A DNA stretch of 64,000 bases, from assembly GCA_001661245.1 (NCBI GenBank), contig KV454013.1, positions 1,683,860 through 1,747,859 on the forward strand, in the 5' to 3' direction. A program made the translations under genes and the position numbers. This stretch comes from Pachysolen tannophilus NRRL Y-2460. Taxonomy: Eukaryota. A model generated the notes under the pieces. The model was not told where the DNA came from. It worked only from the letters and a program-made list of their open reading frames with translations, and did no database searches. Positions 12,000-47,513 of the stretch are shown here, piece after piece (the first letter of the stretch is position 1; every line of letters starts with the position of its first letter).

Positions 12000-14477
12000 A
12001 TGCCGCCTAAGACAGCAAAAATTTCCAAAAATCTGCTGCTGCGGAAACATTTTTTAAATGATGATGGGAAAGATGAGTTGAAGACTTCTGAGTTGGTTTT
12101 CGGTAAGGGAAAATTTAGAGAGTACTTGGTGACGAGTCCATCGGCTGATATCAAGGTTTCGAGGTCAATTGCTACGGTTAATGAAAGAATTTGTTTATTG
12201 GTATTGGCTTTAATCTCACTTGTTGTTCGTTTAAATAAACTTTCACAACCGGATTCGGTAGTTTTCGATGAAGTTCATTTTGGTGGATTTTCCAAAAAAT
12301 ATATTTTGGGTTCATTTTTCATGGATGTTCATCCTCCATTGGCAAAGATGCTTTTCGCAGGGGTTGGTGTATTTGGTGGATTTAAAGGTGATTTTGATTT
12401 CGCCAAGATTGGGGATGTATACCCGGAAACCGTTCCTTATGTGTTGATGCGTACTTTACCTGCCTTGTTGGGTGTTGGAACAATTATCTTACTTTATTTG
12501 ACATTGAGAGCTTCTGGTTGTAAACCTATTCCGTCACTGTTTACTAGTCTGTTGTTATTAATTGAAAATGCTAATTTCACCATATCAAGATATATCTTGT
12601 TGGATTCTCCATTATTATTTTTCATTGCTGCAGCAATTTATTCTCTGAAAAAACATGAAAATGAAATACCTTTTACCTGGGGTTGGTACAAGACTTTGAT
12701 TTCCACAGGTGTATCGCTTGGTCTTGCAGTTTCTTCTAAATGGGTTGGTTTATTCACTATTGCTTGGGTTGGTTTAATTACTGCTTTTAATCTTTGGTTT
12801 ACAATTGGTGATTTATCGGTTACCCCAAAAAAAATTATAGGACAAATTTTTTCCAAGCTAATTATCTTATTAGGACTTCCAATTATCTTGTATCTTTATT
12901 TTTTCAATTTACATTTCCAAATTTTAAATAAGGAAGGTGATGGTTCTGCATTCATGTCTTCTGCTTTTAGATCAACTTTGATTGGTAATAAGATTCCTAC
13001 TGATATTCAAGCAGATGTAGGAGTTGGGTCAAAAGTTACACTTCGTCATTTGAATACTGAAGGTGGATACCTTCATTCCCATAATCATTTATTTGAAACC
13101 GGTTCAAAACAACAACAAGTTACTTTATATCCACATTTGGATGAAAATAATATTTGGACAGTTGAATTATATAATGTTTCTGAACCTCCAACTAGTTTTG
13201 AACCTATTACCGATGGTACCAAGATCAGATTAAACCATATTTTAACTAAACGTAGATTACATTCTCATGATATTAGACCACCAGTTACTGAACATACCGA
13301 TTGGCAAAATGAAGTTTCTGCTTATGGGTTTGAAGGTTTTGAAGGTGATCCAAATGATGATTTTATTGTTGAAATTGTTAAAAAGAAATCTAAAAAAGGT
13401 GAAGCTCAAGAAAGAGTTAGAGCTTTAGAAACTATTTTCAGATTACGTCATGCAATGACTGGTTGCTACCTTTTTTCTCATGAAGTTAAATTACCTACAT
13501 GGGGGTTTGAGCAACAAGAAGTTACTTGTGCTTCTCAAGGGATTGTACCATTATCGTTATGGTATGTTGAAACAAATGAAAATGAATTTTTACCAGAAGA
13601 TGCTGAACGTATAAATTATGAAGCTCCAAGTTTCTTTCAAAAATTCTACGAACTTCATCAAAAGATGTGGAAAATTAATAGAGGTTTGACCGAATCACAT
13701 GCTTGGGAATCTTCTCCAGATTCATGGCCATTCTTATTACGTGGTATTAACTATTGGGGTAAAGACCATAAGCAAGTATACTTTATTGGTAATTTCATTA
13801 CTTGGTGGGCAAGTACTGCGGCGATTATTTTCTTTTTCGTTTATACTTTTGTTAATATCTTAAGATGGCAAAGAGGTTGTCAGGTAGGCTCATCACCTGA
13901 TGTTTTCAACTTCAATGTTCAAATGTTACATTTCATTTTAGGATGGGCTGTTCATTATGCTCCTTCATTTATGATGGAACGTCAATTATTCTTACATCAT
14001 TATCTTCCATCGTTTTATTTTGCGTTATTGGCATTGGGCCATGTCTTTGATATCATATATTCATTTGTATTAAAGAGCAAGAGATTAGTCTCCTATGCAA
14101 TCTTGGGAGGTGTGTTTTCTTCTGCCATAACTGTTTTCTTGAAATACTCGCCATTGATTAAAGGTGATCCTTGGACAAAACAACAATGCGAGAGTTCCAA
14201 ATTGATAAGTACATGGGATTTTGATTGTAATAATTTGCTTAACTCGTTAGAAGAGTACTCTGGTTTTACCTCGTCCTTGGCCCATTCATCCGAACCTACA
14301 ACTCTGACAAAAGTTAACTTCCAAAGCGCAGTTCCAGTTGAAAACTTTTATGACGATTATGAAGAAAATGAAAAGAAAAACGGAATTACAAGGAGCTCTG
14401 ACAATAATGAAGCATCTCCAACGGACGCTGAAGATACTGTAGGCGAACCAGAAGTTGAAAAAGTAGGAGAAACTTGA
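12000..14477 (+). CDS. PMT1: Dolichyl-phosphate-mannose:protein O-mannosyltransferase, PMT1 subfamily
   Basis: VVFDEVHFG, DVHPPLAK, SRYILLD, MIR domains (GGYLHSH, RRLHSH), RQLFLHHYLP. First ATG is at 12000. Confidence 0.93.
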   Translation: MPPKTAKISKNLLLRKHFLNDDGKDELKTSELVFGKGKFREYLVTSPSADIKVSRSIATVNERICLLVLALISLVVRLNKLSQPDSVVFDEVHFGGFSKKYILGSFFMDVHPPLAKMLFAGVGVFGGFKGDFDFAKIGDVYPETVPYVLMRTLPALLGVGTIILLYLTLRASGCKPIPSLFTSLLLLIENANFTISRYILLDSPLLFFIAAAIYSLKKHENEIPFTWGWYKTLISTGVSLGLAVSSKWVGLFTIAWVGLITAFNLWFTIGDLSVTPKKIIGQIFSKLIILLGLPIILYLYFFNLHFQILNKEGDGSAFMSSAFRSTLIGNKIPTDIQADVGVGSKVTLRHLNTEGGYLHSHNHLFETGSKQQQVTLYPHLDENNIWTVELYNVSEPPTSFEPITDGTKIRLNHILTKRRLHSHDIRPPVTEHTDWQNEVSAYGFEGFEGDPNDDFIVEIVKKKSKKGEAQERVRALETIFRLRHAMTGCYLFSHEVKLPTWGFEQQEVTCASQGIVPLSLWYVETNENEFLPEDAERINYEAPSFFQKFYELHQKMWKINRGLTESHAWESSPDSWPFLLRGINYWGKDHKQVYFIGNFITWWASTAAIIFFFVYTFVNILRWQRGCQVGSSPDVFNFNVQMLHFILGWAVHYAPSFMMERQLFLHHYLPSFYFALLALGHVFDIIYSFVLKSKRLVSYAILGGVFSSAITVFLKYSPLIKGDPWTKQQCESSKLISTWDFDCNNLLNSLEEYSGFTSSLAHSSEPTTLTKVNFQSAVPVENFYDDYEENEKKNGITRSSDNNEASPTDAEDTVGEPEVEKVGET

Positions 14478-14806
14478 ATTAAAAGAAGATAAATAGCTTT
14501 CCTAGATGTACATATATTTTTCTCATTGACTTTGGCTCTTATAGTCTTCTCTCTATATATATCTACACTTCAAAAATATGGATATCCTTTTCTACTCAAT
14601 TGTACTATTTAAATATCATTTTTTGATCAATTTGATAACGTCTTGTATGTATTTCCTAAAGAGGAAACTGTTTTTTCAAAATGTTGTAATTCAAATCTCT
14701 GTGCTGTAACTAGACTTCAACAACTATATATAGTTGGGATGAGAGCACAATTATATCCAAGAAATAAAATTTATTAAATTCTTGTTATTGTTTTTAGGAC
14801 TCTGAT

Positions 14807-15472
14807 ATGTCTACAAGCAATCCTGAGTTTGTTGTCGAGTTGGAAAGCATCACATCGTATTTTGATAAGATTCAGTTCAAATCAAAATATTTAAAACTAT
14901 ATGAAATCCCAGAGTTCTATCTGTGTAGTGAAGAGTTTACCGAGCAAATCAGCGAGGAGACTGTAGCAGATATTGAAGAAATGGCAAAATCCAAAAATAG
15001 TTGTTTTAAATTCATCAACATCAATGGAAAAGTTGATGGAGAATTGTATTTGGACAATTTTGAAGAAATAGATATCACTTCGAATGTCTCTCAACTCAAT
15101 TCCTCAATAGGTAACAATGATGAATTTACAATATTACATACAAGTGATATAGAGGATACGTTGCTTGCTACATGTAATAGGGACAAAAATCATAGTAGGC
15201 CAATGACGAACAACCATTGTATTAAATCTTTGGATGTTGCAATTAGTAGTGAATTTAGCGAGATTGAAGAAGAGAGTGATTTGAAATCGGTTAGCATATT
15301 CACAGATGATTTACATTCCACACGCGATAATTCTTTAGGAGGTCCAAATACAACAGTTGCCAGTTTCTCTGATCAAAATAAGTTGCCTAGTTTTCATGAT
15401 TCCTCCTGTAAACAATCATTGTATCATGTGGCATTTCAATCATCAGAAGGAATGTTTAGTGAAATTAATTAG
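14807..15472 (+). CDS. Hypothetical acidic protein (221 aa)
   Basis: A 666-nt ATG-initiated ORF in AT-rich DNA that overlaps no other gene; no recognisable motif. Confidence 0.55.
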   Translation: MSTSNPEFVVELESITSYFDKIQFKSKYLKLYEIPEFYLCSEEFTEQISEETVADIEEMAKSKNSCFKFININGKVDGELYLDNFEEIDITSNVSQLNSSIGNNDEFTILHTSDIEDTLLATCNRDKNHSRPMTNNHCIKSLDVAISSEFSEIEEESDLKSVSIFTDDLHSTRDNSLGGPNTTVASFSDQNKLPSFHDSSCKQSLYHVAFQSSEGMFSEIN

Positions 15473-15594
15473 AGATAGATAGATAGTTATATATTGATTC
15501 AATAGAAGCAAAATTTTAATTGAAAGAATATACAAAAAGGCCAAGAAAAAAAAAAGCAGTATCAATGGTAGACAAAAGATTTCGTTGGCATATT

Positions 15595-18234
15595 TCAAAG
15601 ATACTTGTTTCTGGCTAACCAATCTTTAACATCATCTGCGTCATTATTAACCCATTTAGCATTTGCCTTGATCGATTCTAACACCTGAGATAACGATCTT
15701 TCAAATCCAATGATATTTTTATCTGCAAAAAAATCTTTGATATCATCATACGCCTCATTACTTGCAAAATTTGTCAAAGAAAACTTTATGAATCTATCCA
15801 TAATGACCATATTAGCCGACAATTTCTTGTATAAGTCATCATAATTGGCCTTTATGAACTTCCACAATAGCCAACGTGTTTCGTTATTACGGGCCAAAGA
15901 ACTTGACAAGAAATGCACATCCATTTCAGGGACAAAAGGTTTCAATAATAGTTCAACAGCTTTTGGTAGTAAAGCCTGTTCATTCTTTGAAGTTAAATGA
16001 CCCATGGAGGTAAGTGCAATTTCTCTGGCATCAAGTGATGAAGGCTCTAAAACTTCTTTTAATACCACATTGAATTCATTACTGGAAGCATCTTCATGTA
16101 ATACAGTTGAAAGAACAAAACTTCTTGCAGATGGCCTGATCTCTTCTTTACCCTGTTCCCAGTTTTTGAAGATTCGTTTTGCTTCTTCTACAACCATATG
16201 AACAGACGTTAAACCAGCAGCTGACAATATTTCCATTCGTAAATTTTTTGTTAACAAGGAATCAGTTTCCTCGTCTTTAAATCCAATATTATTGAGTGCA
16301 TGAGAATAGATTTCTTGCTGAAATTTTTTCAAAGCAACTTGAACCTCTAATGGTTGTTCAAACCATGTCTGAGCTAGTTTAGATAATCTACAAATAATTG
16401 TAGTCCAAATATTAATGTCAGTTTCATCTTTAAAGCTCCAAATCAATTCCAATAAAGCTGAGGTTTTCCCCAATCCAGCAGATGCTATCGAAGCAGTATC
16501 TGCTAGTAACCCAATTTTATCCTTAACACTTAATTTGTCTATATTTTCTATGATAATTGACAAAATATCCGAATCATAAAAGACACGATAAACACCAACA
16601 GAGTCTTTGTTTAATTTGAAGAATTTGGTGGTATCTAAAGGTATTTCTATTGTTCTAGAAGAGAAAAATTTCCAAGAATCGGAATTGTTTTTCAAAACAT
16701 CTTCAGGATTAGGACCTGTCGAAATATTCAAAGGAACCCACCATAGTGTTTCGTTTTCTTCAGGTTTAACATCACCAGTTGATAAAAATCGATTCTGTTC
16801 GACTGAAATACCAGTATCAGTTTTTTTAACGATTAGATAAGGAAATCCAATTTTACTAATCCAGGAATCCATCAATTTGGTAACATCAACATTGGAGCTT
16901 TCGCTAATCCCTTTCCAAAGATCGTTAGTCTTGGCGTTACCATATTTGTGTTTTTTCAAATATAAAGATACACCTCTCAAAAAAACATCGACTCCCAAAG
17001 AAGAACTCAACATATTAATAGCAGAGGCCCCTTTTAAATAAGAGATATCATCAAAGACCTGGTCAATGTCCAAAGCAGAATAGACGGGGACTTCAATAGG
17101 ATGAGAACCTCTTAATGAATCTAAGGCAAGGGCACTTTGTAATGATGTAGATATAAAACTAGTGAAAAATTCCCATTCTGGATATAAGTACGAAACAGCT
17201 AAGGTGCCTACCCAAGTAGCGAATCCTTCGTTAAGCCACAATTCGTTCCACCAATCCATTGTGACAAGATCACCAAACCACTGATGAGCAACCTCATGAG
17301 CAACGACGTAGGCAATTTTTTGCTTATATTTAGTATCAGAGGTCTTCTCATCGAATAACAATGCAGTGGATCTAAAAGTTATCAACCCATAATTTTCCAT
17401 TCCATTATGGCTATAAGTGGGAACAGATATTAAATCCAATTTTGGTAAAGGATAATCTAAATCGAATATCTTGGAAAAATAGTCAAGGGATTTAGTGGCA
17501 ACATTCAAACCAAACTGACCTTGTTCTTTCAAACCTCTTGCAGTGTAAACTCTAACTGGAATAGGTTTGTTATTGTACAATCTTTCAGTGAAAGATTCAA
17601 TATATTCAAAATCACCACATGCCCAAGCAACCAAATAAGTACTCATGACTACAGTCTTGTTGAAAATATATTTGACTAAACCTTGATTTTCAATCACTTC
17701 TTTCTGATGAAGTTCCACATTTGATAAGGCAATCCAATCTTGCTTAACAATAACTTCTATAGAAAATGTTGCCTTGAAATTCGGCTCATCTAAACAGGGG
17801 AATCCTCTCCTTGCATCTGTAGCTTCGAATTGAGTACTTAAACAGCATTTTTCCTTACCTGTTATCTCATCTTTATAATCTGATCTATAAAAACCGGACA
17901 TATTGGTTTGAATAATCCCAGCATATTTAATTGATACATATATTTTAGAACCTTTGGCCAACTTATCTTCAAGATCAATCGAAAGCAATTCTGTTTTCAA
18001 ATCCAGATCAAATTTTTTAACATGAATTGGCTTTTTCTCCAGTGTATAGACTCCAATGGTCTTTATTGTTATATCTCTAATGTTCAACAAAATATTGTCT
18101 GTAGACTCTTCGACCGTCAAGTCAATTGAAACAAAACCATTAAAAATATTTGATTCGGTGTCAATTTCTGAAATTTTTATATCATAATGAGATGGAAGAA
18201 GACTCCGTGGCAAACCTTCGTGAGATAATGTCAT
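15595..18234 (-). CDS. M1-family zinc aminopeptidase (Ape2/Aap1-like)
   Basis: STQFEATDARRGFPC, NGMENYGL (GAMEN variant), HEVAHQWFG...WLNEGFA zinc motif, SYLKG. Confidence 0.93.
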   Translation of the reverse strand: MTLSHEGLPRSLLPSHYDIKISEIDTESNIFNGFVSIDLTVEESTDNILLNIRDITIKTIGVYTLEKKPIHVKKFDLDLKTELLSIDLEDKLAKGSKIYVSIKYAGIIQTNMSGFYRSDYKDEITGKEKCCLSTQFEATDARRGFPCLDEPNFKATFSIEVIVKQDWIALSNVELHQKEVIENQGLVKYIFNKTVVMSTYLVAWACGDFEYIESFTERLYNNKPIPVRVYTARGLKEQGQFGLNVATKSLDYFSKIFDLDYPLPKLDLISVPTYSHNGMENYGLITFRSTALLFDEKTSDTKYKQKIAYVVAHEVAHQWFGDLVTMDWWNELWLNEGFATWVGTLAVSYLYPEWEFFTSFISTSLQSALALDSLRGSHPIEVPVYSALDIDQVFDDISYLKGASAINMLSSSLGVDVFLRGVSLYLKKHKYGNAKTNDLWKGISESSNVDVTKLMDSWISKIGFPYLIVKKTDTGISVEQNRFLSTGDVKPEENETLWWVPLNISTGPNPEDVLKNNSDSWKFFSSRTIEIPLDTTKFFKLNKDSVGVYRVFYDSDILSIIIENIDKLSVKDKIGLLADTASIASAGLGKTSALLELIWSFKDETDINIWTTIICRLSKLAQTWFEQPLEVQVALKKFQQEIYSHALNNIGFKDEETDSLLTKNLRMEILSAAGLTSVHMVVEEAKRIFKNWEQGKEEIRPSARSFVLSTVLHEDASSNEFNVVLKEVLEPSSLDAREIALTSMGHLTSKNEQALLPKAVELLLKPFVPEMDVHFLSSSLARNNETRWLLWKFIKANYDDLYKKLSANMVIMDRFIKFSLTNFASNEAYDDIKDFFADKNIIGFERSLSQVLESIKANAKWVNNDADDVKDWLARNKYL

Positions 18235-18410
18235 TACAATTCCTATTGATTAATGTATTATAATTAGTTTCTTTCTCTCAAGCAAATTCCCAAAAAGTAT
18301 TAGAAAATTTTCTACTGCGTAAAGTTAGTTAACTTATACAAAAAAATGTGAAAAACTTTAAATTAAATGATCATTTCAACAATAATTACAATAATCATTT
18401 TACTTGAAGC

Positions 18411-18445
18411 AAAGGTCTAGGTAAAGATCTAGGTAAAGATCTAGG
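18411..18445. repeat. Three tandem copies of a 12-mer (AAAGATCTAGGT)
   Basis: aaaggtctaggt aaagatctaggt aaagatctagg. Confidence 0.8.
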
Positions 18446-18669
18446 CTCATTTAGACGATGAAATCTGGTGTATCTATATGAGAGGGAGAATAAATACTTC
18501 AGAAATATTGAAAAGAAAGAAACACATATATATATATGTATATACGTAGATATATATAAAGTCTAAGTAGAAAATCAAAAATTATATACTTTTTCTTTTC
18601 ATTTAAATTCTTATTTTTATTTATAGTTTTTTTTTGCTTTTTCTATTTTTTAGTTTTCGGTTTTGGACT

Positions 18670-20865
<2,196 letters not shown>

Positions 20866-21845: not shown

Positions 21846-23441
21846 ATGCCTTCTAATTTTCAAAGTATAGAAGACCTTCAAAGACTTTTAGAATTGGTGA
21901 AACTCACCGGAGTCAACATAAATCAGTTGACTCAATTAGCTACTTCTGGGAATAGAGATTTGTTTGATCAAGAATCTTTTTCAGAAATCTCAACACCTGA
22001 TGTACAATCCATTGATAGAAGTTCAGATGATTATTTTTTAGATTATACAAATAAGTATATAGATTTCACCTATGAAAATCCAACCACTTTCCATGCTGTT
22101 GATGGTGTTGGTAAATTATTAGAAGAAAATGGATTTACCTACTTATCTGAAAAATCGGATTGGTCTGATTTAAAAGCAGGTTGTTATTATACAACCAGGT
22201 CAAGTAGTTCAGTGGCTGCTTTTGTAGTTGGATCAAAATGGACCCCATCAAAAGGTGTAGCTATGATTTGTGCTCATATCGATGCTTTAACAACCAAGTT
22301 GAAACCAAATTCTATAAAGGACAAAGTTGAAGGCTATGAGTTATTAGGTGTTGCACCTTATGCTGGTGCCTTGAGTGAAAGATGGTGGGATAGAGATTTA
22401 GCTATAGGTGGAAGAGTTTTAATTAAGAATAAAGATTCAGCTGAAAAATCTGGATTTAGAATTACTTCAAAATTGATTAACTCTGCCCCTCGTCCAATTG
22501 CTCATATTGCAAGCTTAGCTCCACATTTTGGAGCTCCAGCAGAAGGTCCTTTTAATAAAGAAACACAAATGGTTCCAATTATTGGATTTGATGGTAGCCC
22601 AGATCCTGAACCTACTGAAAGTGAGCGTAATTCTCCATTATATGGTAAGCATTCTTTGAAATTATTAAGGTTAGTTGCTGAATTAGCAGATGTTGAAGTT
22701 TCTGAATTGTATGAATTAGATTTGGATCTATATGACGTGCAAAAAGGTGTTATTGGTGGCTTATCAAGTGAATTTTTGTTTTCTCCAAGAATTGATGATA
22801 GGATTTGCTCATTTTCTGCTATTAGTTCTTTAATCGAATATGCAAATGGTATTGATCAAATTCCAGAAGAATCTTTTTCATTTGTTGCCTGTTACGATAA
22901 TGAGGAACTAGGTTCTTTAAGTAGACAAGGAGCACAAGGTGGCTTACTGGAATCTGTGGTTGATAGAGTGATAAACGCATATTTCCCAGATAAAGATACT
23001 TCTTCATTGGCTAGAGTAGCATACGCAAACTCAATCATTCTCTCTGCAGATGTTACTCATTTGTATAATCCAAATTTCCCTGGCCAATATTTGGAAAACC
23101 ACAAACCAGTTCCAAACATTGGTTTAGTAGTCTCATGTGACTCTAACGGTCATATGGCAACTGATGCTGTCGGCAAAGCTTTATTACAACAAATTGCAGA
23201 ATTGAATGACGATAAGTTGCAAGTTTTCCAAATAAGAAACGATTCAAGATCTGGAGGAACAATAGGTCCATATCTCTCTAGTAAGACAGGTGCTAGAACT
23301 GTTGAAATTGGAATTGGTCAGTTATCAATGCACAGTATTAGACTGATGACAGGCTCAAAAGATATTGGTTTAGCTGTCAAATATTTTGTTGGATTCTTTG
23401 ATAAGTGGAGAGAGGTTTATGACTCTTTTCAAGATTTATGA
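21846..23441 (+). CDS. APE1: Vacuolar aminopeptidase I (M18 family) with N-terminal propeptide
   Basis: ENPTTFHAV, WWDRDL, LAPHFG, PRIDDRICS, DNEELGS, RSGGTIGP, QLSMHSIR. Confidence 0.9.
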   Translation: MPSNFQSIEDLQRLLELVKLTGVNINQLTQLATSGNRDLFDQESFSEISTPDVQSIDRSSDDYFLDYTNKYIDFTYENPTTFHAVDGVGKLLEENGFTYLSEKSDWSDLKAGCYYTTRSSSSVAAFVVGSKWTPSKGVAMICAHIDALTTKLKPNSIKDKVEGYELLGVAPYAGALSERWWDRDLAIGGRVLIKNKDSAEKSGFRITSKLINSAPRPIAHIASLAPHFGAPAEGPFNKETQMVPIIGFDGSPDPEPTESERNSPLYGKHSLKLLRLVAELADVEVSELYELDLDLYDVQKGVIGGLSSEFLFSPRIDDRICSFSAISSLIEYANGIDQIPEESFSFVACYDNEELGSLSRQGAQGGLLESVVDRVINAYFPDKDTSSLARVAYANSIILSADVTHLYNPNFPGQYLENHKPVPNIGLVVSCDSNGHMATDAVGKALLQQIAELNDDKLQVFQIRNDSRSGGTIGPYLSSKTGARTVEIGIGQLSMHSIRLMTGSKDIGLAVKYFVGFFDKWREVYDSFQDL

Positions 23442-26887: not shown

Positions 26888-27739
26888 ATGACGGTTCAAA
26901 GGTTTTATCAATTGTCTTCGGGCTATAGGTTACCATCTGTTGGTCTTGGTACTTGGAGTATTCCCAATCTGAGCACGGCTAAGGTTGTATGTAGTGCTTT
27001 AGATTGTGGATTTCGGCTTATTGATACAGCAGTATTATATGGTAATGAACGGGAGTGTGGTCAAGGTATTTTGAAATGGATTGAGCAGGATCCTCAGAAT
27101 AATAAGAGGGAAGAAGTTGTTTATACTACTAAGTTATGGAACTCTGAGTGTGGGTATCTGAGGGCAAAAGCTGCAATTAAAAAATGTTTTGAAAAAGTTG
27201 AAGGGCTCGGTTATATTGATTTATTATTGATACATTCTCCTTTAGCTGGACCAACAGCAAGATTAGAGACTTGGAAGGCTATGCAAGAAGCAGTTGATGA
27301 AGGTTTAGTCAAATCAATTGGTGTTTCGAATTATGGCCAACATCATATTGAACAATTGCTATCATGGGAAGGATTAAGGTATAAACCAGTTGTTAATCAA
27401 ATTGAAATATCACCTTGGTTAATGAGACAGGAATTGGCTGATTTTTGCAAATCAAATGGGATTGTGGTAGAGGCATATGCACCGCTAGCTCATGGTGGAA
27501 GAATAAACGATAAAGATGTTTCAAGATTGGCCAAGAAGTATAACGTTTCCACAGCTCAAATTTTAATTAGATGGAGTTTACAAAAAGGTTATGTTCCATT
27601 ACCAAAGACAAAATCTCTTGAAAGGTTACCATCTAATATTGACGTTTACAATTTTGAAATCTCTCAAGAGGATATGGATATCTTGAGTCACCCAGAGAGT
27701 TATGACCCAACTGATTGGGAATGTACCGATGCTCCTTGA
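26888..27739 (+). CDS. Aldo-keto reductase (YJR096W-like)
   Basis: IDTAVLYGNE, TTKLWN, LLIHSP, SIGVSNY, PLPKT, C-terminal PTDWECTDAP. Confidence 0.92.
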   Translation: MTVQRFYQLSSGYRLPSVGLGTWSIPNLSTAKVVCSALDCGFRLIDTAVLYGNERECGQGILKWIEQDPQNNKREEVVYTTKLWNSECGYLRAKAAIKKCFEKVEGLGYIDLLLIHSPLAGPTARLETWKAMQEAVDEGLVKSIGVSNYGQHHIEQLLSWEGLRYKPVVNQIEISPWLMRQELADFCKSNGIVVEAYAPLAHGGRINDKDVSRLAKKYNVSTAQILIRWSLQKGYVPLPKTKSLERLPSNIDVYNFEISQEDMDILSHPESYDPTDWECTDAP

Positions 27740-32410: not shown

Positions 32411-33820
32411 TTATAAGATGGGTTTCTTTCTTCTTTTGACCAAACCATTTAAATTATTAACAGTTGGTGATGATAATTTCCTCTTGACTAGTCCATTCAA
32501 GTCATTAGTTTGTGGGATTATTGTGTTAGCTTGGTGGTTTTGTTTTTCAAGTTTTCCAAGTTTTTTCCCATGAATTTCTTTAAATATATGGTTGATTGAT
32601 AGGCAATTGATGTAATTGTAAATTTTTTCTATTTCATCGATATCATTGCTATAATCTTGTTCAATTATGATGGTTTTAAGTTTCTTCAAGTTCTTATTAT
32701 TCAATTTTATAAGTTCATTTGTATTTGAAAAATTTTTTTTATGTAAATTTCCTTTAACTCCAATTACACCAACTACAACACCAAGCCTAAATTCTTGTCT
32801 TATTGATAATTCTAACCAAAATTGCAGTATACTAATTTTTTTAATTCTATTTTCCACCACTAAATGTTCAAAAAATCTTCCCTTTGGATCATCTGGAAAT
32901 AGAGGTATGGCATTAATAGCCAATTCATGATTTGAATCTTTATGATTATTATCATGAAATATATCACCAATAGACCAATTAGTTTTATTTGGTAAATACC
33001 TTTCTGTTGTTGTAAATTCTGATCCTGGAATAGTTAATTTAATTTCTTTATTATCAAATTCTGTTAAACTAACTTCATTGATTATATTACACCACCATTT
33101 TAATAATTGTTCACCATTTAATAAATGTTTCTTTGTATTTTTATATGAATAAGGGAATAAATATTGTCTTTCAGGTCTTGTAAATAAACAAATTTTATCC
33201 ACAACATGATTATCATTATATTCAAGTTTTAAATGAGATATTCTATTATTTCCTTCAGTTTTTAAAGGTTTATTAATATCTTTATTTTGATGTAATCTTT
33301 CAATTAAAATTCTTAAAGATCTCTCAGTAGATGTTACATATCTATTGTTGTTAAACTTGTTTGAGAACGAAAACTCATGTTTAATATTTTTATCTTTCTC
33401 AAGTTTAACTATAACATCATCTAAATAATAACTCAATGGAATTCTTAATAAATATTTCATTATATCTTTAACCAATTCTCCAATATTAACATTAATTTTA
33501 TCCTGCGTCTTATCTTTATCAAATAACCCAGTAGTATCAGCCTTTGATATAAATAAAACTCTCGAAGTCTCATCTTTATCCAAGATAATATATACAAATA
33601 CTTCAATTCCGAAAAAAATAACCTTATCTTGTAATATCGATATGAAATGTTGAATCTTAACAGTTGTACTTTTAGTGGTATTTTTATTCTTATAAAAAAT
33701 TGGTTTTGATTTTTTAGATTGAGATACTAAATTGATTAATCTATAACGAATTGAAGATTTTGGTAAATGAGATTCTAAAAGTGAACAAAGCTCAACTTCA
33801 CTATCATCATTATCAGACAT
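32411..33820 (-). CDS. RTT109: Histone H3K56 acetyltransferase
   Basis: FISKADTTG, LFTRPERQYLFP, LLKWW, IPLFPDDPKGRF, FWLELSIRQEFRLG. Confidence 0.92.
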   Translation of the reverse strand: MSDNDDSEVELCSLLESHLPKSSIRYRLINLVSQSKKSKPIFYKNKNTTKSTTVKIQHFISILQDKVIFFGIEVFVYIILDKDETSRVLFISKADTTGLFDKDKTQDKINVNIGELVKDIMKYLLRIPLSYYLDDVIVKLEKDKNIKHEFSFSNKFNNNRYVTSTERSLRILIERLHQNKDINKPLKTEGNNRISHLKLEYNDNHVVDKICLFTRPERQYLFPYSYKNTKKHLLNGEQLLKWWCNIINEVSLTEFDNKEIKLTIPGSEFTTTERYLPNKTNWSIGDIFHDNNHKDSNHELAINAIPLFPDDPKGRFFEHLVVENRIKKISILQFWLELSIRQEFRLGVVVGVIGVKGNLHKKNFSNTNELIKLNNKNLKKLKTIIIEQDYSNDIDEIEKIYNYINCLSINHIFKEIHGKKLGKLEKQNHQANTIIPQTNDLNGLVKRKLSSPTVNNLNGLVKRRKKPIL

Positions 33821-35271: not shown

Positions 35272-35280
35272 GTTGCCACT
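35272..35280 (-). promoter_or_regulatory. PACE-like (Rpn4) element AGTGGCAAC upstream of PRE3
   Basis: Variant of GGTGGCAAA, about 86 nt upstream of a proteasome-subunit ATG. Confidence 0.6.
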
Positions 35281-35521
35281 ATAAAATTGAACAAATAGAT
35301 GAAAACCAGAATTTGAATTTCTACGCACGTCTCTTAATTGCAAACCAATATCAACTATAATATATTAAGACGATATACAATCAGGTATATATTGAACTAT
35401 AAAAGAGTAGAAGAAGGAGAAAAAATAAATTGAATGGAAAGTAGTTAAAGAGAAAAAGAAAGAAATTGAGGCAATTGTGTTTTTTTCTTTTTTCCTTTTT
35501 TTTTCATTTTTAGCTTTTTAT

Positions 35522-37216: not shown

Positions 37217-37459
37217 AATCTATCTAGTTAAAGAAATGTTATCTCTTGATTCAAAGTAATAAATACTTTTATAATAATATATATCTATGGATTTTCTTTG
37301 AAAAAAATTTCAGTAAAAAAAAAAAACATGAAAAAAAAAAAAAAATTGTCAAAATAATATTAGTCGTTCTACAAGTATCAAAAGTACAAAAAAGGAAACA
37401 ATAATATACATGGTAATAATAATATACAGAAATACAAAAAGCAAAGTTTCACAAGTTTC

Positions 37460-40400
37460 TCAAGTCAGTGGATGAGTTTTGTTTGACAGAGTTGAAGTTG
37501 AAGGGAGGTTGAAAAGTCTGGGTATTTTGGAAGCTGGGCGAGTTAATGAAGGTGGTGATGGCTTCACCAAGTTGGTTCGTTCCAGCTCGAATGATAAGTA
37601 GTTTTCTTCATTAGAATCCACAAAAGTACTTGAACTGCTTCTAGTATTTGAATAATTTTGTTTATTTCTATTAATGATATCACGATTGGTATTGTTTTGT
37701 TCGATATCATGTTTATCTGAGGATCTGGTTTCGTGGCCAGCAAGATTGAGATTTGGTATTTCGTTTAAATAAAGCAGCATTCGTTGCCTTAGATCGGGGA
37801 TTGGAGAAACTTTTGGTGAATCAATGTTTTCAAAAAATTTTCTATTGTTGTTATTTTTAGTTTGAGTGTTCTGTTCCAGCTTGGTTTTAAAATCATCTTC
37901 CTGAGGTGGATAATTCACAGGCTGAAATCGTTGTTTCTTGGATGAAAATAAAGTTTTAAGTAATTGAGGGTCGGGTTTAGTATTATTAATAGGGGAAGAC
38001 GTTGAAGCCATATTAACAGAAATTATATTAGTATTCCCATATAACGTTTCTTCATGATTTGATTCAACTTCTTGTGATTTATCAGAATGATTATTTTGAG
38101 TTTGAAAACTCCTTGATCCCTTTCCAATTACGTCTTTATCAATTTTTGATAAAAATGATGGTTGTGGTGGTATTGATATGGGAATATCTTCACTCTTGGG
38201 ATTAAAATCATCAAATGTGTTATTCGTGCTAGAGTACAAATTTTCACCACCAATAACTTTGGCAAAATTATTGTTATTATCAATAGTTATCTTTTTAGCA
38301 GATGGAGTAGGTGATTTATTTTTAACACCATAAAATCTTTTCTTTAAAGCATCAATTTGACTTCTTTTATAACTTTGACTATCCACATTGATATTTGGAT
38401 TGATTCTAATACTCCTGGGAGTTCTCATTGAAGATCTTGGAGTTTTGAAAAAAGAAGGTCGTTCTGTGAATGAACTGTCCTTTGATGGTGATAAGAATTC
38501 TGTTGAACCATTACGTTGTTCATCGTTAAGCAATAATGGAGTTGAGGAGATCATTTGTGGCTGAAAATCCAATTTTCTTGAATTCTTTCTGTTTAAAGGA
38601 GAAGTATAGTTTTCATTGTCATTAAAAGAAATCTCGGTATTAATATTCTTGTCATGTTTTTCTAAGGTAAAATCTTTCCAAATAGTTAAAAAATTCTTCA
38701 AAATGGTTACTTCTAATTTTTTTTTGAATTCAAGTGACAAATTTTCATTATTCTTAATCTTCAAGTATTTTAATGATATTTTCTTGAAAAAAGAGTTCAA
38801 ACGATTCAAGTTTCCATAATAAATTCTTTCATTACAAAGTTGATTCAAATATTGAATCTCGTTGAACCTATCGATTAAAATATTTAAATAATTTGTGAGT
38901 AAAAGCTCTTCATTGAACTTTTTAGCTTTGACTTTGTTTTCTTCTATCTTCTTATATTTATTCAACCATTGATAAAAGACAGGAGTGACAAAATTCTCTT
39001 GAGATGATAATTCATAATTATGTTGCAATAATTGTTTTTTTTCAAACAATTCAATAGTTTTATCTTCCCATATTGTTAAAAAAGATTTTAAGATAATAAG
39101 TTTTCTTCTTTGTTCAAATTCACCGAGAGATTTAATTTCCAAATCTTTTAGATTTTCAGACCTTTTTATTTTTCTATTTGAATCTTTCTGAACCCATAAC
39201 TTGAATATATTGTATTTCAAATTTTCATTCCTGGAAAATTGAAATAAAGAAGACCTTGTTTCCAATTTCCAGAGTCTTAAAAAAAATGAAAGTAAACCAT
39301 AATTTCTTCTTTTCTCAAATCTTTTCAAATTTAGTTGAATTTGCAAAACTTTAAAATAGTGCTCCAATAACCTTTCTCTTGCAAAACAGTCTGCCATAAA
39401 CTTGTTTTCTTTGATAATAACCAAATTTAAAAAATAGCGTCTTAGTATCTTTTTATTTAAAGTAGAGGAAAACTTCTTCCGCAATTTTTGTTCCAGATAT
39501 CTTTGATTCCAGTATTGAAAAAACAGATTCTTGCGAATCAACTCAATTTTTCTAAAAGTCTCCGATTCAAGTTTTTTCAAATCCGACAGGGCCTTCCAGC
39601 GAGCGAAAAAAGTATGTTTCACCCTTTGTAAGTAGATCAGTTCACGATTTCTCAATATGAGTGTTCTCTCATCATATTTTAAAAGAAGTTTCTCAAAAAA
39701 TAACTTTTTTTTAGAGTTTTCCAAAATTTTGATTTTAGAATTCAAAGTTTGTACACTTTCAAATTTCAGTATGAACTTCTGGATATAGTTAATTTTTTGA
39801 AACTTACAAAATTTATCATATTGCAAATCTAATTCGCAATTATACTTATTGAACTTAGAAACCCATAAAACTAAGAATTTACTTTGAACAATTTCACTCG
39901 AAACAAGGTCAAGACTTTGATATATCCTGAAATGATTCAGCCATTTCTCATAAAATAATTTCGAGTCATATAATGTTTTATAATTATCTGCTTGTGATTC
40001 TAGAAATTTTAATTTTGACAATTTTTTATTCCACAAATTAAAAATTTTTCTTGTTAAGATGACTTTATTGTACAAAGCCAAAAATTCCTTTTCTTCTTCT
40101 TTCAAACCTAAAGCATCGAACCATATCTTCAAGAATTTCCTTTTTAATTTTTTGTCTTTGGTGTATTTGAATAAAGCTTCTCTATGCACTGTAGTGGTTT
40201 GGATGATCTTAGGATCTTTATTAAAAATAGGTTCTCCCACCATCACTTTGCACAAGTTATGTAATTCTAAGTCCCAGCATTTATGTGTTATAGTTTCATT
40301 TTCATATTTTAAAACATTTTTTTTAACATTATTATAATATACATCATTGATTAGGGTATTAATATTGCCATCATGCAATAATATATCAACATAACATTTG

Positions 40401-41683
40401 AAGATTTCTGGAAATTTAAATTCATAATAATCTGGATCCACTATATTTGAGGTATCATCATAAAGGGGTCTTTCATGTAATTCGTAATTTTTAAATGCAT
40501 TTACTATTTTTTTCAACAAGGTTAACAATTTTTCTATTTCTTTTAAAGAATCTATATTTTTAACAAGATGTGGGCGATATTCATTTTCTTCATAATCTCT
40601 TTTTATGATTTTAGAATTTTTGATTAATTTTGAGGTGTGTATTTGATCTTTTATGGGATGAGGGACTGATTTGGAGGTTTTCTTAGTTTTCTTGTATTCC
40701 TCAAGCATAATCTCTAATTCATTGAAAATAGGGTTTTTATTAAAATATGTTTTAATTGTTTTACCCAACTGAGATGAATTTTCATCAACAAATACACATG
40801 TAATATTTATTATAGAATTGTTAAAGTTCAACATTAAATCATTATTGAAAAAATAACGGATACGAATGAAAACTTTGTACATTTGAAGTGTAATATTTGA
40901 AATTTTCCATATTTTATCTTTGAGTATAGCGTTATCATCTTCATTTGTAGATTCAGTGAGGACTCGCAATAACATATTTTCATAGCATCTTTGGAAAAAA
41001 GGATCATTTGACTGAAGATTTAAAGGCTCCAATTGATTGTTTTCAATACTAAATTCTGTTGTCGGATCATGATTAGTTGTATTACTATCTGTTAAAAATT
41101 TATCAAATATTTTCTTGATCTTCAAATTGTAATTATATTCGTATATGAATGAATCAAATATTAGTTTAACAAGCTCAGATTCGACAGAATTACAATCTTT
41201 CTCAAGAAGTGATATAAATTTTCCAATCTCTTCAAGCAATATTATCAGGAAACAGTCATTAACGTTTTTTGATGAGTTTTTTTTCAAATTCTCATTACAA
41301 CAATTTTTCAATTTATCAAAATTTAATTGATTTACTGAATTTTTCGAATTAGCATTTAGTGAAACTTTTTTCATTGCATCTGAAATTGTCATTACTGGTT
41401 CCTGATCATTCTTATTCAAAGTATATTTAAAAATTCTCCTATTTGAAATTTGTTTATTATTAATAATTAATTCTCCAATTGAAATATCATCTAGTATTGG
41501 CGGTACATTTAAAAATTGTTTCCAGTTAGCCCTTATTACTGATAACCTATGATTGATGATTGCATAAACCTCTGTTTCCGTATAATTTGAATAATCAACA
41601 TACAAGTTTATAATAGACGCTACTAACTGGTTCAAAGACAGCTCTGTATGTTTTGCTTGTCCTGTTGGCAGTTTGTCGTCCAT
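37460..41683 (-). CDS. SFI1: Sfi1-like spindle pole body half-bridge protein (1407 aa)
   Basis: Many periodic L...F..W centrin-binding-like repeats (KIFNLW, LFYEKW, TFFARW, LFFQYW, SFLTIW) followed by an S/T-P-rich tail. Confidence 0.7.
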   Translation of the reverse strand: MDDKLPTGQAKHTELSLNQLVASIINLYVDYSNYTETEVYAIINHRLSVIRANWKQFLNVPPILDDISIGELIINNKQISNRRIFKYTLNKNDQEPVMTISDAMKKVSLNANSKNSVNQLNFDKLKNCCNENLKKNSSKNVNDCFLIILLEEIGKFISLLEKDCNSVESELVKLIFDSFIYEYNYNLKIKKIFDKFLTDSNTTNHDPTTEFSIENNQLEPLNLQSNDPFFQRCYENMLLRVLTESTNEDDNAILKDKIWKISNITLQMYKVFIRIRYFFNNDLMLNFNNSIINITCVFVDENSSQLGKTIKTYFNKNPIFNELEIMLEEYKKTKKTSKSVPHPIKDQIHTSKLIKNSKIIKRDYEENEYRPHLVKNIDSLKEIEKLLTLLKKIVNAFKNYELHERPLYDDTSNIVDPDYYEFKFPEIFKCYVDILLHDGNINTLINDVYYNNVKKNVLKYENETITHKCWDLELHNLCKVMVGEPIFNKDPKIIQTTTVHREALFKYTKDKKLKRKFLKIWFDALGLKEEEKEFLALYNKVILTRKIFNLWNKKLSKLKFLESQADNYKTLYDSKLFYEKWLNHFRIYQSLDLVSSEIVQSKFLVLWVSKFNKYNCELDLQYDKFCKFQKINYIQKFILKFESVQTLNSKIKILENSKKKLFFEKLLLKYDERTLILRNRELIYLQRVKHTFFARWKALSDLKKLESETFRKIELIRKNLFFQYWNQRYLEQKLRKKFSSTLNKKILRRYFLNLVIIKENKFMADCFARERLLEHYFKVLQIQLNLKRFEKRRNYGLLSFFLRLWKLETRSSLFQFSRNENLKYNIFKLWVQKDSNRKIKRSENLKDLEIKSLGEFEQRRKLIILKSFLTIWEDKTIELFEKKQLLQHNYELSSQENFVTPVFYQWLNKYKKIEENKVKAKKFNEELLLTNYLNILIDRFNEIQYLNQLCNERIYYGNLNRLNSFFKKISLKYLKIKNNENLSLEFKKKLEVTILKNFLTIWKDFTLEKHDKNINTEISFNDNENYTSPLNRKNSRKLDFQPQMISSTPLLLNDEQRNGSTEFLSPSKDSSFTERPSFFKTPRSSMRTPRSIRINPNINVDSQSYKRSQIDALKKRFYGVKNKSPTPSAKKITIDNNNNFAKVIGGENLYSSTNNTFDDFNPKSEDIPISIPPQPSFLSKIDKDVIGKGSRSFQTQNNHSDKSQEVESNHEETLYGNTNIISVNMASTSSPINNTKPDPQLLKTLFSSKKQRFQPVNYPPQEDDFKTKLEQNTQTKNNNNRKFFENIDSPKVSPIPDLRQRMLLYLNEIPNLNLAGHETRSSDKHDIEQNNTNRDIINRNKQNYSNTRSSSSTFVDSNEENYLSFELERTNLVKPSPPSLTRPASKIPRLFNLPSTSTLSNKTHPLT

Positions 41684-42912
41684 TTCTTTTCATATAGATA
41701 AACATATATACATATATATATACATATATTGTTTAAATAAATAAAAAAAATAAAAAAAAACAAAAATATAGTGGGCGCTTTATAAAAATAATCCAGTCTC
41801 AATCACTTTCACACTAACGCTCTGACTCTCATTTACTGTATTCTAATGTTGTTTTCAACTTTATTACTTCTTTAACATTTAAAACACATAAATTCATTAA
41901 ATCAAAACTAAAATTATTATATAGAGATAAAAACTCAAACAAACGCGTACAAGACTTTGTGATCTTCCTAATTGGGAAGAACTGTGTTTCAGACACACGA
42001 CCACGACCACATAAAATGAAGTTAATAGAAAGATAGAAAAATATATTTAATAACAAAGGATATTAGAGTTGATTATGGTTCAAGTAAATGCTGATAGATG
42101 GACAATGTAAGATATAAGTATACCCGTATCTTTCTTTTCGTTATTGAGAATAAGATTAAAACAGGATAAGGGAAAAAAAAAGGCAGTTGTATATTTGAGG
42201 AAATGGAAGTACGGTGCAAGTTTTAAAAGTAGAAGAGCATGATTTACATAGTTAACTATTGCAAAAAGATATTGCTCTGCTTACTGGTTTCAACCACAAA
42301 TTCCCAGAATTAGCATATAGTAAAACTAAGGCTACAATTTTCTAGAGTCCAAATACGAAAAAAAAAAAAAAAAAAAAAAGAATAAAACTAAAAAAATAAA
42401 ATAAAAGGCAGTAAGTACAAGTATAATACGTACGTAACCGCCAATACCAAATTTAATATAATGATACGATATGACCCTCCCTGCTTCAATTCCTTCACGT
42501 AGAAACGTAGAAAGGGTCAGAACATCTCATTTATAGCGACTGTAAAAATTAATTGTGTAACAAGAAAAGTTTTGCGCCAATCGCCATTACCCACTCAAAC
42601 CCATTTTCCTTCCCATAAGGAAAAGAAAATTTTTCTTCATATAGAAATTCCTTCCAAATCTAATCTTGTCTCAAGCCTGTGAAGGCGAAACAAAACCAGC
42701 TTGAAATACGGAATAAAAAAAAGAAGAAGGGAAAAGTCATAATATGGAGTACGCGAGATTTCATCATGTAAATAAAACTTGGAAGGTCATATAAGGAGAA
42801 AAAAAAAAAAAAAAAAAAAGAAAAAAGAAAAAGACTTAAATGAGTTATTGATGCTTCTTCTTTCTTGTATTTATACTTTTTTACGAAAAATACCCAAAAA
42901 AAAAAAACAAAA

Positions 42913-42924
42913 AAAATTTTTTCA
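42913..42924 (-). promoter_or_regulatory. RRPE-like element (TGAAAAAATTTT) upstream of NOC4
   Basis: Matches the ribosome-biogenesis motif, but the local DNA is very A/T-rich. Confidence 0.4.
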
Positions 42925-43123
42925 AGAAGGATTATTGACACGGTGCAGAGAGGTTGCAGTCTGTCATCAAATTTTTTTTCTTTTCTGTATGGATAAATTT
43001 TGCAAAGGTGAAGAAGAACAAGAAGAACAAGAAGAAGAAGTGATAGGTTTAAATTAGATTAGTTTTTAGTAAAAGTTGGTATTTTTTTCCAGTGAATTTG
43101 AGGAGTTGAATTTGTGGTCTAGT

Positions 43124-44883
43124 ATGGTTGTGAAGAGGAAAAGTTCAAGTAAGGATAAGGTCTTGCTGAAGAAAGTTAAAGCAGATTCAAAGTTTGATGG
43201 ATTATTTTCTATTGAAAAAATTAAAGAACTTTGCGATGAGTTGGATGAGTCTGCGAAATTTTTGAATAATATTGCGTTGTTATTGCAGCAATATGATTTA
43301 GTATTGCCGCAGTTGTCTGGGGCTCTGGGGAAAGAGTTGGAAGATTTTATTGTGTTGTTGAGGTTTTTAACTGTTAGTATACTTCATGTTTTTGAGAAAT
43401 TAATGGTTAAAGAATTTTTCGTTATTAGCAAAGGAATAGATGAATCCAAGCTTAAAGTTGCCAAATGGCTAAGGTTAAAATATCAATTTTTTTGTTACGA
43501 TATCTTGTTGGAATTTTTTTCTTTGGATATTGAGGAACAAGATAATGATTTATTAAATTCATTTAAGATTGATGTATTAGAAATTGTAATGAGATTAATA
43601 AAACTTGAATCTACATATTTTGCACCAAATCCAAATGAACCATATTTTAGTTTGCCCCTTTATAAGAAGTTAATAATCAAGTTGTTGACTAGTGGGAGTC
43701 ATGAAGGAATTCAACAAAATGGTGTTAATGATAATTATTTGGTTTTAGAATTTTATGAACAATTTTTCCAAAAAAATTGGGATTTAAAATTTTTTTTCTT
43801 AAGTGAGACTTGTAATATATTATTTAAAGAAGAAGAAGAAAAAGAAGAAAAAGAAGAAAAGAAAAAAGTGAAAGATTTACAATTGATTTTTTCAAATTTT
43901 CTTGTAATTATGAGAAATTCGATATATAAAGATTATGAAATTGATTCTAAACAATTTTTTGTTACAAATCCTCCATCAGTAATTTTTAAAAAAAATCAAT
44001 TTAAAATTAATTTTGAAAAAACTTGGTTAAATTTTTTAAATTTCCCATTAACAATTCAACAATATAAACAAACTTTATTAATTCTTCATAAACGTATAAT
44101 TTTATTTTTCAATAATCCAACAAAATTAATGGATTTTGTTACAGAATCTTATGAAATAGGATTTTCTAACATTATACAAAGAGATGAAGATGATGATGAA
44201 GATCATGAAGATTCAATAATAATATCGATCTTGGCTTTGAATGGGTTATATGAATTGATGAAGAATTATAATTTGGAATATCCTCAATTTTATGAAAAAT
44301 TATACAAGATATTATCAAATAAAAATTTATTACATTTAAATTATAAATCAAGATTTTTCAGAATGTTAGATTTATTTTTATCATCTACACATTTACCAGC
44401 TCAATTAGTTGCTTCTTTTATTAAAAAATTATCCAAATTATCATTAACTTCACCACCTTCTGGTATTGTTATAGTTATACCATTTCTTTATAACTTGTTG
44501 AAAAAACATCCATCATGTATGATAATGTTACATAATACAAATCATGATGAATCTTATAAAGATCCTTTTATAGATACAGAAGAAGATCCTTTAAAAACTA
44601 ATGCAATTGGATCTTCCTTATGGGAATTACAAACATTAATGTCACATTATCATCCAAATGTGTTATCATTACTGAAAATTTTTGGACAACCTTTTAATAA
44701 GTATTCTTATAATTTAGAAGATTTTCTCGATTGGAGTTACAATAATTTATTAGAAAGTGAATTACACAAGAAATTTAAAGGTGACATTTCATTAGAATTT
44801 GAAAAATTCGATAAATTACTCGAAAAAGGTAAAAATGATCATGAAAAGTCGGAGATAAGCTATATGACCGGTTGGCAATGGTA

Positions 44884-44884
<1 letters not shown>
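43124..44884 (+). CDS. NOC4: Nucleolar complex protein 4 (CBF/Mak21 domain)
   Basis: LALNGL, NLEYPQFY, RFFRMLDLFLSSTHLP, SSLWEL, HYHPNV. First ATG is at 43124. Confidence 0.93.
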
Positions 44885-44922
<38 letters not shown>

Positions 44923-45696
44923 TTCGTACTATATTTTTTTTCTTTTTAATAGACATAGCTGAAAAAAATTAAAATAACCAACCATCTTTACTTTTCATTA
45001 ATTTTTAAATTTATTCAAAAAAAGAAAAAAAAATCTCAAAATAAACTATTCTTCTTAGTTTTATGGCCATCTCATTAGCTTAATTTTTTTTTTTCCTTTT
45101 TGACCTTACCATAATATCTTAAAATCAAAGAAAAAAAATATATATATATTACTAATTTTGAAGTATTATTCATTCCTATCAATTCTTAATAGGCATTAGA
45201 TAAAAAGAGGAACCGCGCAATCTTACCGCTAGCGGAATTTGTTTATCAATTCTCCAAAAAATTGCTGCATTCTGCATGTAAGCGAATCACATAAGAGATT
45301 GAGAAAAGGGTCGGCGGCAATGTTTCAGAAACAGTATAAAAGCTGCATCATTTGATTGTAATGCATTAATTCTTGGTGACCCTTTGAAATTTTCTTTGGT
45401 GAACAAATATTTTTCAAGTATAAACTAAATAGATAGAGATAGAGATCACTGATAAAAAAAAAAAAAAAAAACAAGAAAAAGAAAAAGTTCAACTTGAACT
45501 AAAATGAAAATGCAGTGTATTGTCATAACCTCATCTGTTCGAGGTTATATTTAAACCTCTTAGTATCTATCTTTTTTTTTTTTTCATTCGTTGTAGTAAA
45601 AAATCTCTTGGTCGAATAAATTTCAGAAATTTAAGATTACTTGGTGATTTACTTGCACAGACTTTAAATAAAATTTGTATTTTAGTTTCTTCCAAT

Positions 45697-47513
45697 ATGG
45701 AGAGTAAAAAATCTACTAGATCTGTTGCTCCAGTAAAGTCGACAACGATTTTAGATGTTGACGATTTAAGGGTCACTTCTGTTCTATCAAATGGTCATAG
45801 TCACAGAAAAATTGTGGTTGATCATGAAGTTGATAGAGATGAGGCTATTATCTTGGCATTAGGTTATAAGCAAGAGTTTAAAAGAGAATTTTCGTTGATG
45901 ACAACTTTTGCAGTTTCTTTTTCAGTTTTAGGTTTATTACCTTCTATAGCCAGTACCATGTGGTATTCGTTGGGTTATGCTGGAAATGCAGGTTTAACTT
46001 GGGGATGGTTGGTTGCTATGATCGGTATTCAATGTGTTGCAAATAGTTTAGCTGAAGTTTCTTCAGCATTTCCAACTTCGGGTGGATTATATTATGCAAC
46101 AGCTCAACTTGCACCTCCAAAATGGGCTCCTTTCTTATCCTGGTGTGTTGGTTGGTCTAACTGGTTAGTTCAAATTACAGGGGCACCTTCGGTTGATTAT
46201 GGAGGAGCATGTATGATTCTTGCTTTAAAAAGTTTTAGTGATCCAAGCTTTAGTGCAACAAATGGTCAAACATATTTGCTAACAATGGCATTAACTACAA
46301 GTAATGCATTCTTATCATCTATGCCAACAGCATGGTTAGCTAAATTTAATACCGTTGGAAGTATTTTTAATTCCGTGTTTTTAATTATAATATTCTTGAT
46401 GATTTTAGGAGGTGATAATAGAGTAAGTCAGGGATATTCAAAATTTAATGACAACTCTTATGCTTGGGGTATAACTAACTCAACAGAATGGCCAGATGGA
46501 GTCAGTGTTATAATGAGTTTCTTGGCTGTTATTTGGACAATGTCTGGATATGATTCACCTTTTCATTTAGCTGAAGAATGTTCTAATGCTCAACTCGTAA
46601 GTTTTTCTTTCTTTCATTCATATTGATTTTTAATTTTATGATCAAAATTACTAACTTTTAACTTTATTTATAGCTGACACCACGACTGATTGTTATGACT
46701 TCTAGTATTGGTGGAATAATGGGATTTGTATTACAATTGGCAATTGCATACACGATTGTTGATGTTGATGCAGCTGTTAACGATGAATTGGGTCAACCTT
46801 TTGTCTCATACTTGGCTCAATGTCTTTCAACAAAGATGGTCTATGCTGCTACATCATTTACCATTATAAGTAGTTATTTTATGGGACAGCTGTGTCAGAT
46901 TGCTCTGTCTCGTGTTACTTATGCATACTCAAGGGATGGATGTTTCCCCTTTTCAAAATATTTGAAAAGAACAAGTAGTTGGGATATCCCACTTAATGCT
47001 GTCTGGGCTAATTGGTTTATAGGTCAATTATTATTATTATTAATCTTTGCAGGAGGTACTGCAATTGATGCAATTTTCTCTGTTGGGGCAATTGCAAGTT
47101 TCATTTCATTTACTACTCCAGTCTTGTTAAAAATCACTTATTCACGCAAAACTTTTAGACCAGGTCCATGGAATTTAGGAGTTTTCTCAATTCCATGTGG
47201 TATAATTGCTTGTTCATTTGTTATTATGATGATTCCCTTCTTACTATTCCCAGAATACAGAGGTGCAGATAATGTTCCAGACTCAATGAACTGGACAGTT
47301 GTTGTCTATTTTGGTCCAATGCTCATGGCAATCGCTTGGTTTGGTATATCTGCAAGAAAATGGTTCACCGGTCCAAAGACTAACTTGTCCAATGATATGG
47401 TTATTGATAATGACGAGTCTTTGGAAGTAATCGAAGCTAAATTCAGTGCTGACAATGAAAAGATAAACTACGGCCCAGTATCGTCTACTCTAGTAAAAGA
47501 TCCAGAAATCTAA
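45697..47513 (+). CDS. APC-family amino acid/GABA/polyamine permease; exons 45697-46596 and 46674-47513
   Basis: LGYKQEFKREFS, PTSGGLYY, GYDSPFHLAEEC. The intron GTAAGT(46597)...TACTAAC(46649)...TAG(46673) joins the two track ORFs in frame. Confidence 0.92.

Follow-up and report, generated by a model that had tools for sequence, protein, structure and literature searches.

The nuclear code of the yeast Pachysolen tannophilus, in which CUG is translated as alanine, was described by Muhlhausen et al. 2016 (PMC4937558) and is listed as NCBI table 26, which was set up for this species. In the sections of that article consulted here, the transfer RNA (tRNA) with anticodon CAG is of the alanine type, with G3:U70 and without an extended variable loop, and no tRNA-Leu(CAG) is reported. 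The same sections give alanine for 97.2% of the 907 CUG positions that had full support in liquid chromatography coupled to tandem mass spectrometry, and the authors prefer a reassignment driven by tRNA loss. The alanine clade is composed of Pachysolen, Nakazawaea and Peterozyma according to the accessible part of another article (PMC5951914), and in the portion seen of a third the CUG-Ala code belongs to the diagnosis of the order Alaninales (PMC11182611). In this study, we analyzed a 64-kb stretch of DNA, hereafter the window, for which a tool-free initial annotation had proposed that CTG codons are read as alanine, with Pachysolen tannophilus and relatives named as the known case.

Our analysis assigns a probability of about 97% to the reading that the window belongs to the nuclear genome of Pachysolen tannophilus NRRL Y-2460 (Alaninales) and that CUG is alanine in it (table 26). 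This code has been known in the organism since its publication in 2016, and nothing in it is scientifically new. A second report from 2016 is cited by Muhlhausen and colleagues in their own paper of that year.

A total of 31 open reading frames (ORFs) of at least 150 amino acids starting with ATG were found, and 28 of them were retained; the three left out, 1847..2512(+), 3707..4843(+) and 4550..6475(-), overlap a Ser-rich repeat ORF in other frames. CTG makes up 60 of the 14,232 codons and is present in 19 of the 28 ORFs, with three further CTGs (20616, 46674 and 46686) in exon parts outside the ATG-initiated ORFs. Every CTG cited in the initial annotation was located in frame at its position: 12033/12036/12039, 12537, 12549, 20616, 22947, 23343, 44672, 46674, 46686 and 46905. 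A comparison of CTG positions with orthologue columns, proposed in that annotation, was run on four proteins of the window, namely PMT1, an amino-acid permease, GFA1 and NOC4. The CTG codons were masked as X ahead of every search and alignment, and no reading was presupposed. The alignments hold 119 homologues for PMT1 (excluding the window's own record P0001), 119 for permease exon 2 (excluding its own record P0121), 118 for GFA1 (excluding its own record P0241 and P0242, a scorpion-labelled protein of 1182 amino acids), and 150 representatives for NOC4. They cover 16 CTG codons, 11 of which fall in columns at least 80% occupied. Control sites coded by Leu, Ala or Ser codons were drawn from the same alignments. 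The CTG-bearing genes outside the column test encode Sfi1, NPCC, CwfJ, FTR1, M1 peptidase, STIMATE, MTAP, HAD and DNM1.

Some of the CTG sites lie at conserved alanine columns, and none lies at a Leu-majority column. Columns with at least 90% Ala hold 3 of the 11 CTG sites, all three at 97% Ala or more, compared with 39/110 of the Ala-coded sites (p = 0.75) and none of the Leu-coded (0/231, Fisher p = 7e-5) or Ser-coded sites (0/162, p = 2e-4). At a threshold of at least 50% Ala the count rises to 4/11, the fourth site being 75% Ala. Under the standard code, CTG would be an ordinary leucine codon, rare through AT-richness, and the alanine matches would be chance substitutions. However, none of the 11 CTG sites has a column with at least 50% Leu, compared with 159 of the 231 Leu-coded sites (p = 5e-6), 1/110 Ala-coded and 0/162 Ser-coded sites; CTG thus does not behave like the other Leu codons, and the column test refutes this explanation. 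In a Codetta-like log-odds score, Ala was the sole residue with a positive value (+15.6 bits), followed by W (-9.6), S (-11.1) and L (-18.1). A difference of 33.7 bits separates Ala from Leu; in 5000 sets of 11 sites resampled from true Leu positions, the highest value was -17.0. The association of CTG with Ala columns in these alignments exceeds chance.

The sites that carry this signal are found in the permease and in NOC4. The first codon of permease exon 2 (46674..46676, +) and the CTG in TPR[CTG]IVM (46686..46688, +) are each aligned to Ala in 117 of the 119 homologues and are A in P0121, and the CTG in IA[CTG]SR (46905..46907, +) corresponds to Ala in 116/119. In NOC4, the CTG of HPNVLSL[CTG]KIF (44672..44674, +) matches Ala in 113 of the 150 representatives, with V in 11 and S in 5. 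These four sites bear out the alanine assignments of the initial annotation, as does APE1, where the CTG of SMHSIR[CTG]MTGSKD (23343..23345, +) faces A in S. cerevisiae Ape1 (PDB 5jgf; SMHSIRAATGSKD); the four alignments listed for APE1 are all to S. cerevisiae constructs. The first GFA1 site, DGDK[CTG] (20614..20616, -), was rightly matched to A in S. cerevisiae (DGDEA), and the public record P0241 also has A, but its column varies among the homologues (P 36, K 30, L 17, A 12 of 118). At the second one, IP[CTG]QIKK (19177..19179, -), the column reads E 67, Q 24, G 11, A 4 and L 0 of 118. Most PDB comparisons involve proteins too remote to be of use: both GFA1 sites face D in human GFAT1, within parts of the alignment that are gapped or variable, and the aldo-keto reductases (AKRs) of Bacillus have N or S at 26969 and E at 27158.

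A reading of CUG as serine, as in Candida (table 12) or the Ascoidea/Saccharomycopsis clades, predicts that CTG sites share columns with Ser codons. One site does so, the permease CTG at 46890..46892 (+), which is Ser-majority (S 68, A 35, G 14, L 2 of 119), and the RTT109 site KISI[CTG]QFW (32825..32827, -) is S in S. cerevisiae Rtt109 (PDB 3q66). Against these two, Ser-majority columns hold only 1 of the 11 CTG sites compared with 76 of the 162 Ser-coded ones, the columns of at least 90% Ala are as foreign to Ser codons as noted above, and the difference between Ala and Ser, 26.7 bits, lies beyond all 5000 resamples drawn from true Ser sites, the highest of which gave 7.4. As a set, the CTG codons do not align to conserved Ser in the way that table 12 would require.

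Domain scores give a less sharp picture. Nineteen ORFs were translated under tables 1, 12 and 26, and Pfam scores were summed across the 12 CTG-bearing domains. The sum was 2143.6 with Ala, 2137.7 with Ser and 2134.2 with Leu, so that Ala leads Leu by 9.4 bits and Ser by 5.9 bits, and Ala scored above Leu in 7 of the 12 domains. Several domains score nearly equally with Ser and Ala (Ser vs Ala: AKR, 161.6 vs 161.2; AA_permease_2, 98.5 vs 97.5; Sfi1, 64.9 vs 62.5), which speaks for the serine reading. Taken together, the Pfam comparison weakly favors Ala and would not be decisive alone.

The identity of the organism agrees with the columns. Translated with table 26, GFA1 (18673-20748, minus strand) corresponds to residues 3-694 of PACTADRAFT_80512 [Pachysolen tannophilus NRRL Y-2460], with 692 of 692 residues identical, and permease exon 2 is identical to PACTADRAFT_75621 from that strain, save for 9 residues absent from the record. 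The species is placed by NCBI taxonomy in the order Alaninales, family Pachysolenaceae; this lineage, together with the GFA1 identity, puts the window within the Pachysolen/Nakazawaea/Peterozyma clade, and the earlier naming of Pachysolen and its relatives proved exact. The own-genome records P0001 (PMT1), P0121 (permease) and P0241 (GFA1) are located on one contig of 1,751,653 bases and have Ala at 13 of 13 CTG codons (7, 4 and 2, respectively), and table 26 was therefore used by the depositors. With Ala as the only positively scored residue and as the residue deposited at CTG, the proposal that this genome uses the CUG-Ala code holds. A leucine code would have to be reconciled with an organism known as P. 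tannophilus, for which alanine peptides are published, and a serine code with an organism of the alanine clade. We regard the standard code as extremely improbable here, and CUG-Ser as almost certainly wrong.

Several observations weigh against the alanine reading. The initial statement that CTGs fall where homologues have Ala was overstated: it applies to 4 of the 11 alignable sites, and the others are not Ala-majority. Three of the 11 lie in hydrophobic-majority columns, all in PMT1, at 12537..12539 (+) in a membrane domain (F 64, L 37, Y 8, A 3 of 119), at 12549..12551 (+), where the column is mixed (L 39, A 28, S 18, F 16), and at 12645..12647 (+), where it is aromatic (F 48, Y 26, W 19, L 13, A 6). 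The PMT1 codons were only listed by the initial annotation, and none of those listed proved to be an Ala column; the CTG CTG CTG run near the N-terminus (12033..12041, +) could not be aligned (82 to 107 gaps among 119 homologues) and is uninformative, with AAA in P0001. Another CTG, in the C-terminal tail of PMT1 (14304..14306, +), has T 31, N 21, S 13 and A 7 of 119. In APE1, the CTG of GGL[CTG]ES (22947..22949, +) is L in S. cerevisiae (GGLLESVV), as the initial annotation itself had pointed out as a counter-example. Leu scored above Ala in 5 of the 12 Pfam domains (PMT, M18, HAD_2, Sfi1 and STIMATE), two of them by 0.1 bit, and the PMT domain scored best with Leu (281.1 vs 278.2 with Ala). 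On the Ala-Leu difference, 99.3% of resamples of ordinary Ala codons outscore the CTG set, so conservation at the CTG sites is below that of a typical Ala site. The Ala residues of the public records reflect the choice of table by the annotators and not the product of the cell. Finally, no tRNA gene was found within the 64-kb window, so the tRNA(CAG) was not seen there. The PMT1 sites, APE1 22947, the slightly better Leu scores and the Ser-rich repeat described below are also what can be said for leucine under the standard code.

The scarcity of CTG was offered as evidence by the initial annotation. The codon is indeed rare, but CTC (29), GCG (25) and CCG (26) are scarce as well and CTG is no rarer than these G/C-ending codons, a point that the standard code accommodates without difficulty. 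Rarity was rejected as a sign of reassignment and carries no weight, because it is accounted for by the AT-rich composition (30% GC). Sfi1 contains 14 CTGs, NPCC four and CwfJ three, and others are present in FTR1, M1 peptidase, STIMATE, MTAP, HAD and DNM1.

Six of the CTGs (2494..3155, -; codon starts 3153, 3108, 2967, 2874, 2685 and 2496) are located in tandem units of the Ser-rich repeat ORF, in the context SAPA/SASA/TPG-[CTG]-SSS. Ten paralogous units carry TTT (7), TTA, TTG or ATA at the CTG position, and this too counts against alanine; judged by the paralogous units, the position is hydrophobic. Most simply, the six CTGs represent a single TTG-to-CTG change that was amplified along with the unit. 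The ORF itself is long, Ser/Thr-rich and tandemly repeated (1828-5925, -), has no Pfam match, and probably encodes a cell-wall mucin-like protein. It is broken by runs of N at 1871-2427 and 4574-4840, and the frame shifts across the Ns, with ORF 4550..6475 in another frame; repeat number and frame are therefore not fixed by this assembly.

CTGs at hydrophobic positions would be expected if decoding were mixed, with CUG mostly Ala and a meaningful fraction of Leu at some sites, for example by wobble of tRNA-Leu(UAG). The three PMT1 columns, APE1 22947 and the repeat sites point in this direction, and stochastic decoding of CUG is described for Ascoidea asiatica in the part consulted of PMC6041473. 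However, the hydrophobic excess in the window is not significant (3/11 CTG vs 11/110 ordinary Ala codons, p = 0.12), and in the sections seen of PMC4937558 non-Ala or ambiguous residues occur at only 26 of 907 CUG positions of the proteome, not above the AUG control codon. The simpler account is that TTG or CTN codons became CTG by one base change where the protein tolerates it, and we consider mixed decoding highly improbable. There is a slim chance that PMT1 12537 and 12645, APE1 22947 and the six repeat CTGs are more than tolerated replacements of Leu by Ala: they could mark places at which a residual reading of CUG as Leu is of consequence, or positions retained from an ancestral CUG-Leu state and also present in the closest Ala-clade yeast.

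In the nearest relative among the homologues, predictions apparently made with the standard code give L at residues 180 and 216 of PMT1 and at residue 517 of NOC4. Its proteins (P0002 for PMT1 and P0361 for NOC4) are about 61-62% identical to those of the window. At the NOC4 site P0361 carries L, compared with A in 113 of the 149 others, and P0002 carries L in a PMT1 column with 84% Ala. These L residues could stem from CTG codons in a second yeast of the alanine clade whose proteins were predicted under the standard code. Two further homologues carry unexpected labels. P0038, a mannosyltransferase of 972 amino acids recorded as 'MAG: ... [Asgard group archaeon]', is 56% identical to the window PMT1 over 96% of its length and ranks amid orthologues of the Candida and Debaryomyces type; it has the appearance of a yeast contaminant within an archaeal metagenome bin. 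P0242, GFAT2-like and labelled Centruroides sculpturatus, has a score equal to that of the best yeast GFA1 match with 62% identity over only 62% of the GFA1 query, and is probably a fused or duplicated model.

On the alanine reading, the history of the codon can be outlined along steps proposed in the literature. The ancestral tRNA-Leu(CAG) would have been lost, and the codon would have been captured by a tRNA-Ala gene with an anticodon mutated to CAG. The captor tRNA would keep the alanine identity elements and would be without the long variable arm that Leu and Ser tRNAs have, and could therefore be charged by alanyl-tRNA synthetase. CTG would have re-accumulated afterwards, in part where Ala is the residue required and in part where the protein is tolerant and a codon for Leu or another residue was one base change away. 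We infer that the CTGs in hydrophobic columns arose by such changes at tolerant sites.

The window is AT-rich, with 30% GC overall and 27 to 38% across 4-kb bins, and yeast-type genes are densely packed across it. Those named by Pfam encode a PMT1-like mannosyltransferase, an M1 aminopeptidase, GFA1, APE1 (M18), a HAD hydrolase, FTR1, two aldo-keto reductases, a CwfJ protein, dynamin, RTT109, SFI1, NOC4, the amino-acid permease, a nuclear-pore NPCC protein, MTAP and a STIMATE protein. Spliceosomal introns with the signals GTAAGT, TACTAAC and TAG were found in two genes, the permease and GFA1. The permease intron (46597..46673, +) was read directly from GTAAGT through TACTAAC to TAG and lies just upstream of CTG 46674; its splice is backed by the public record P0121, which reads ...AEECSNAQLATPRAIVM. 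The GFA1 intron (20750..20860, -), also read directly, follows ATG TG, and P0241 begins with MCGIF and then equals the window translation. The 9 residues AKFSADNEK, in frame at 47417-47443 (+), are missing from PACTADRAFT_75621, and the start of this record is MKIDEAIIL, while the window at 45697-45850 (+) is read without interruption in an ORF whose ATG is at 45697 (MESKKSTRSV...). Two small introns in the deposited gene model may be spurious. Another ORF, 59674..60420, encloses a run of 556 Ns (59802-60357) and single Ns at 60361 and 60372, and is largely an artefact of read-through across Ns.

For annotation, ORF tracks and protein searches on this genome need table 26. The initial remark that a standard-code ORF track is wrong at each CTG is correct: such a translation miscalls about 63 residues as Leu in the 64-kb window, or about 4 per 1000 codons, and affects 19 of the 28 ORFs. 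The case also shows that a sense-codon reassignment is recognizable by a tool-free reader from a handful of conserved columns.

Compared with known systems, the window matches the one described for P. tannophilus (PMC4937558, table 26) in organism and in reassignment, and is a 64-kb sample of that genome. No difference was found between them, and the CTG sites of the window are somewhat less Ala-conserved than ordinary Ala codons. The CUG-Ser codes (Serinales, table 12; Ascoidea/Saccharomycopsis) likewise belong to budding yeasts in which the same codon was captured by a non-Leu tRNA(CAG). They differ in the amino acid, which is Ser, and Ser fails the column test in the window. The mitochondrial code of Eremothecium gives CUG the same meaning, Ala, in the part consulted of PMC4937558. 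Unlike that mitochondrial case, the genes of the window are nuclear and have spliceosomal introns with GTAAGT and TACTAAC signals.

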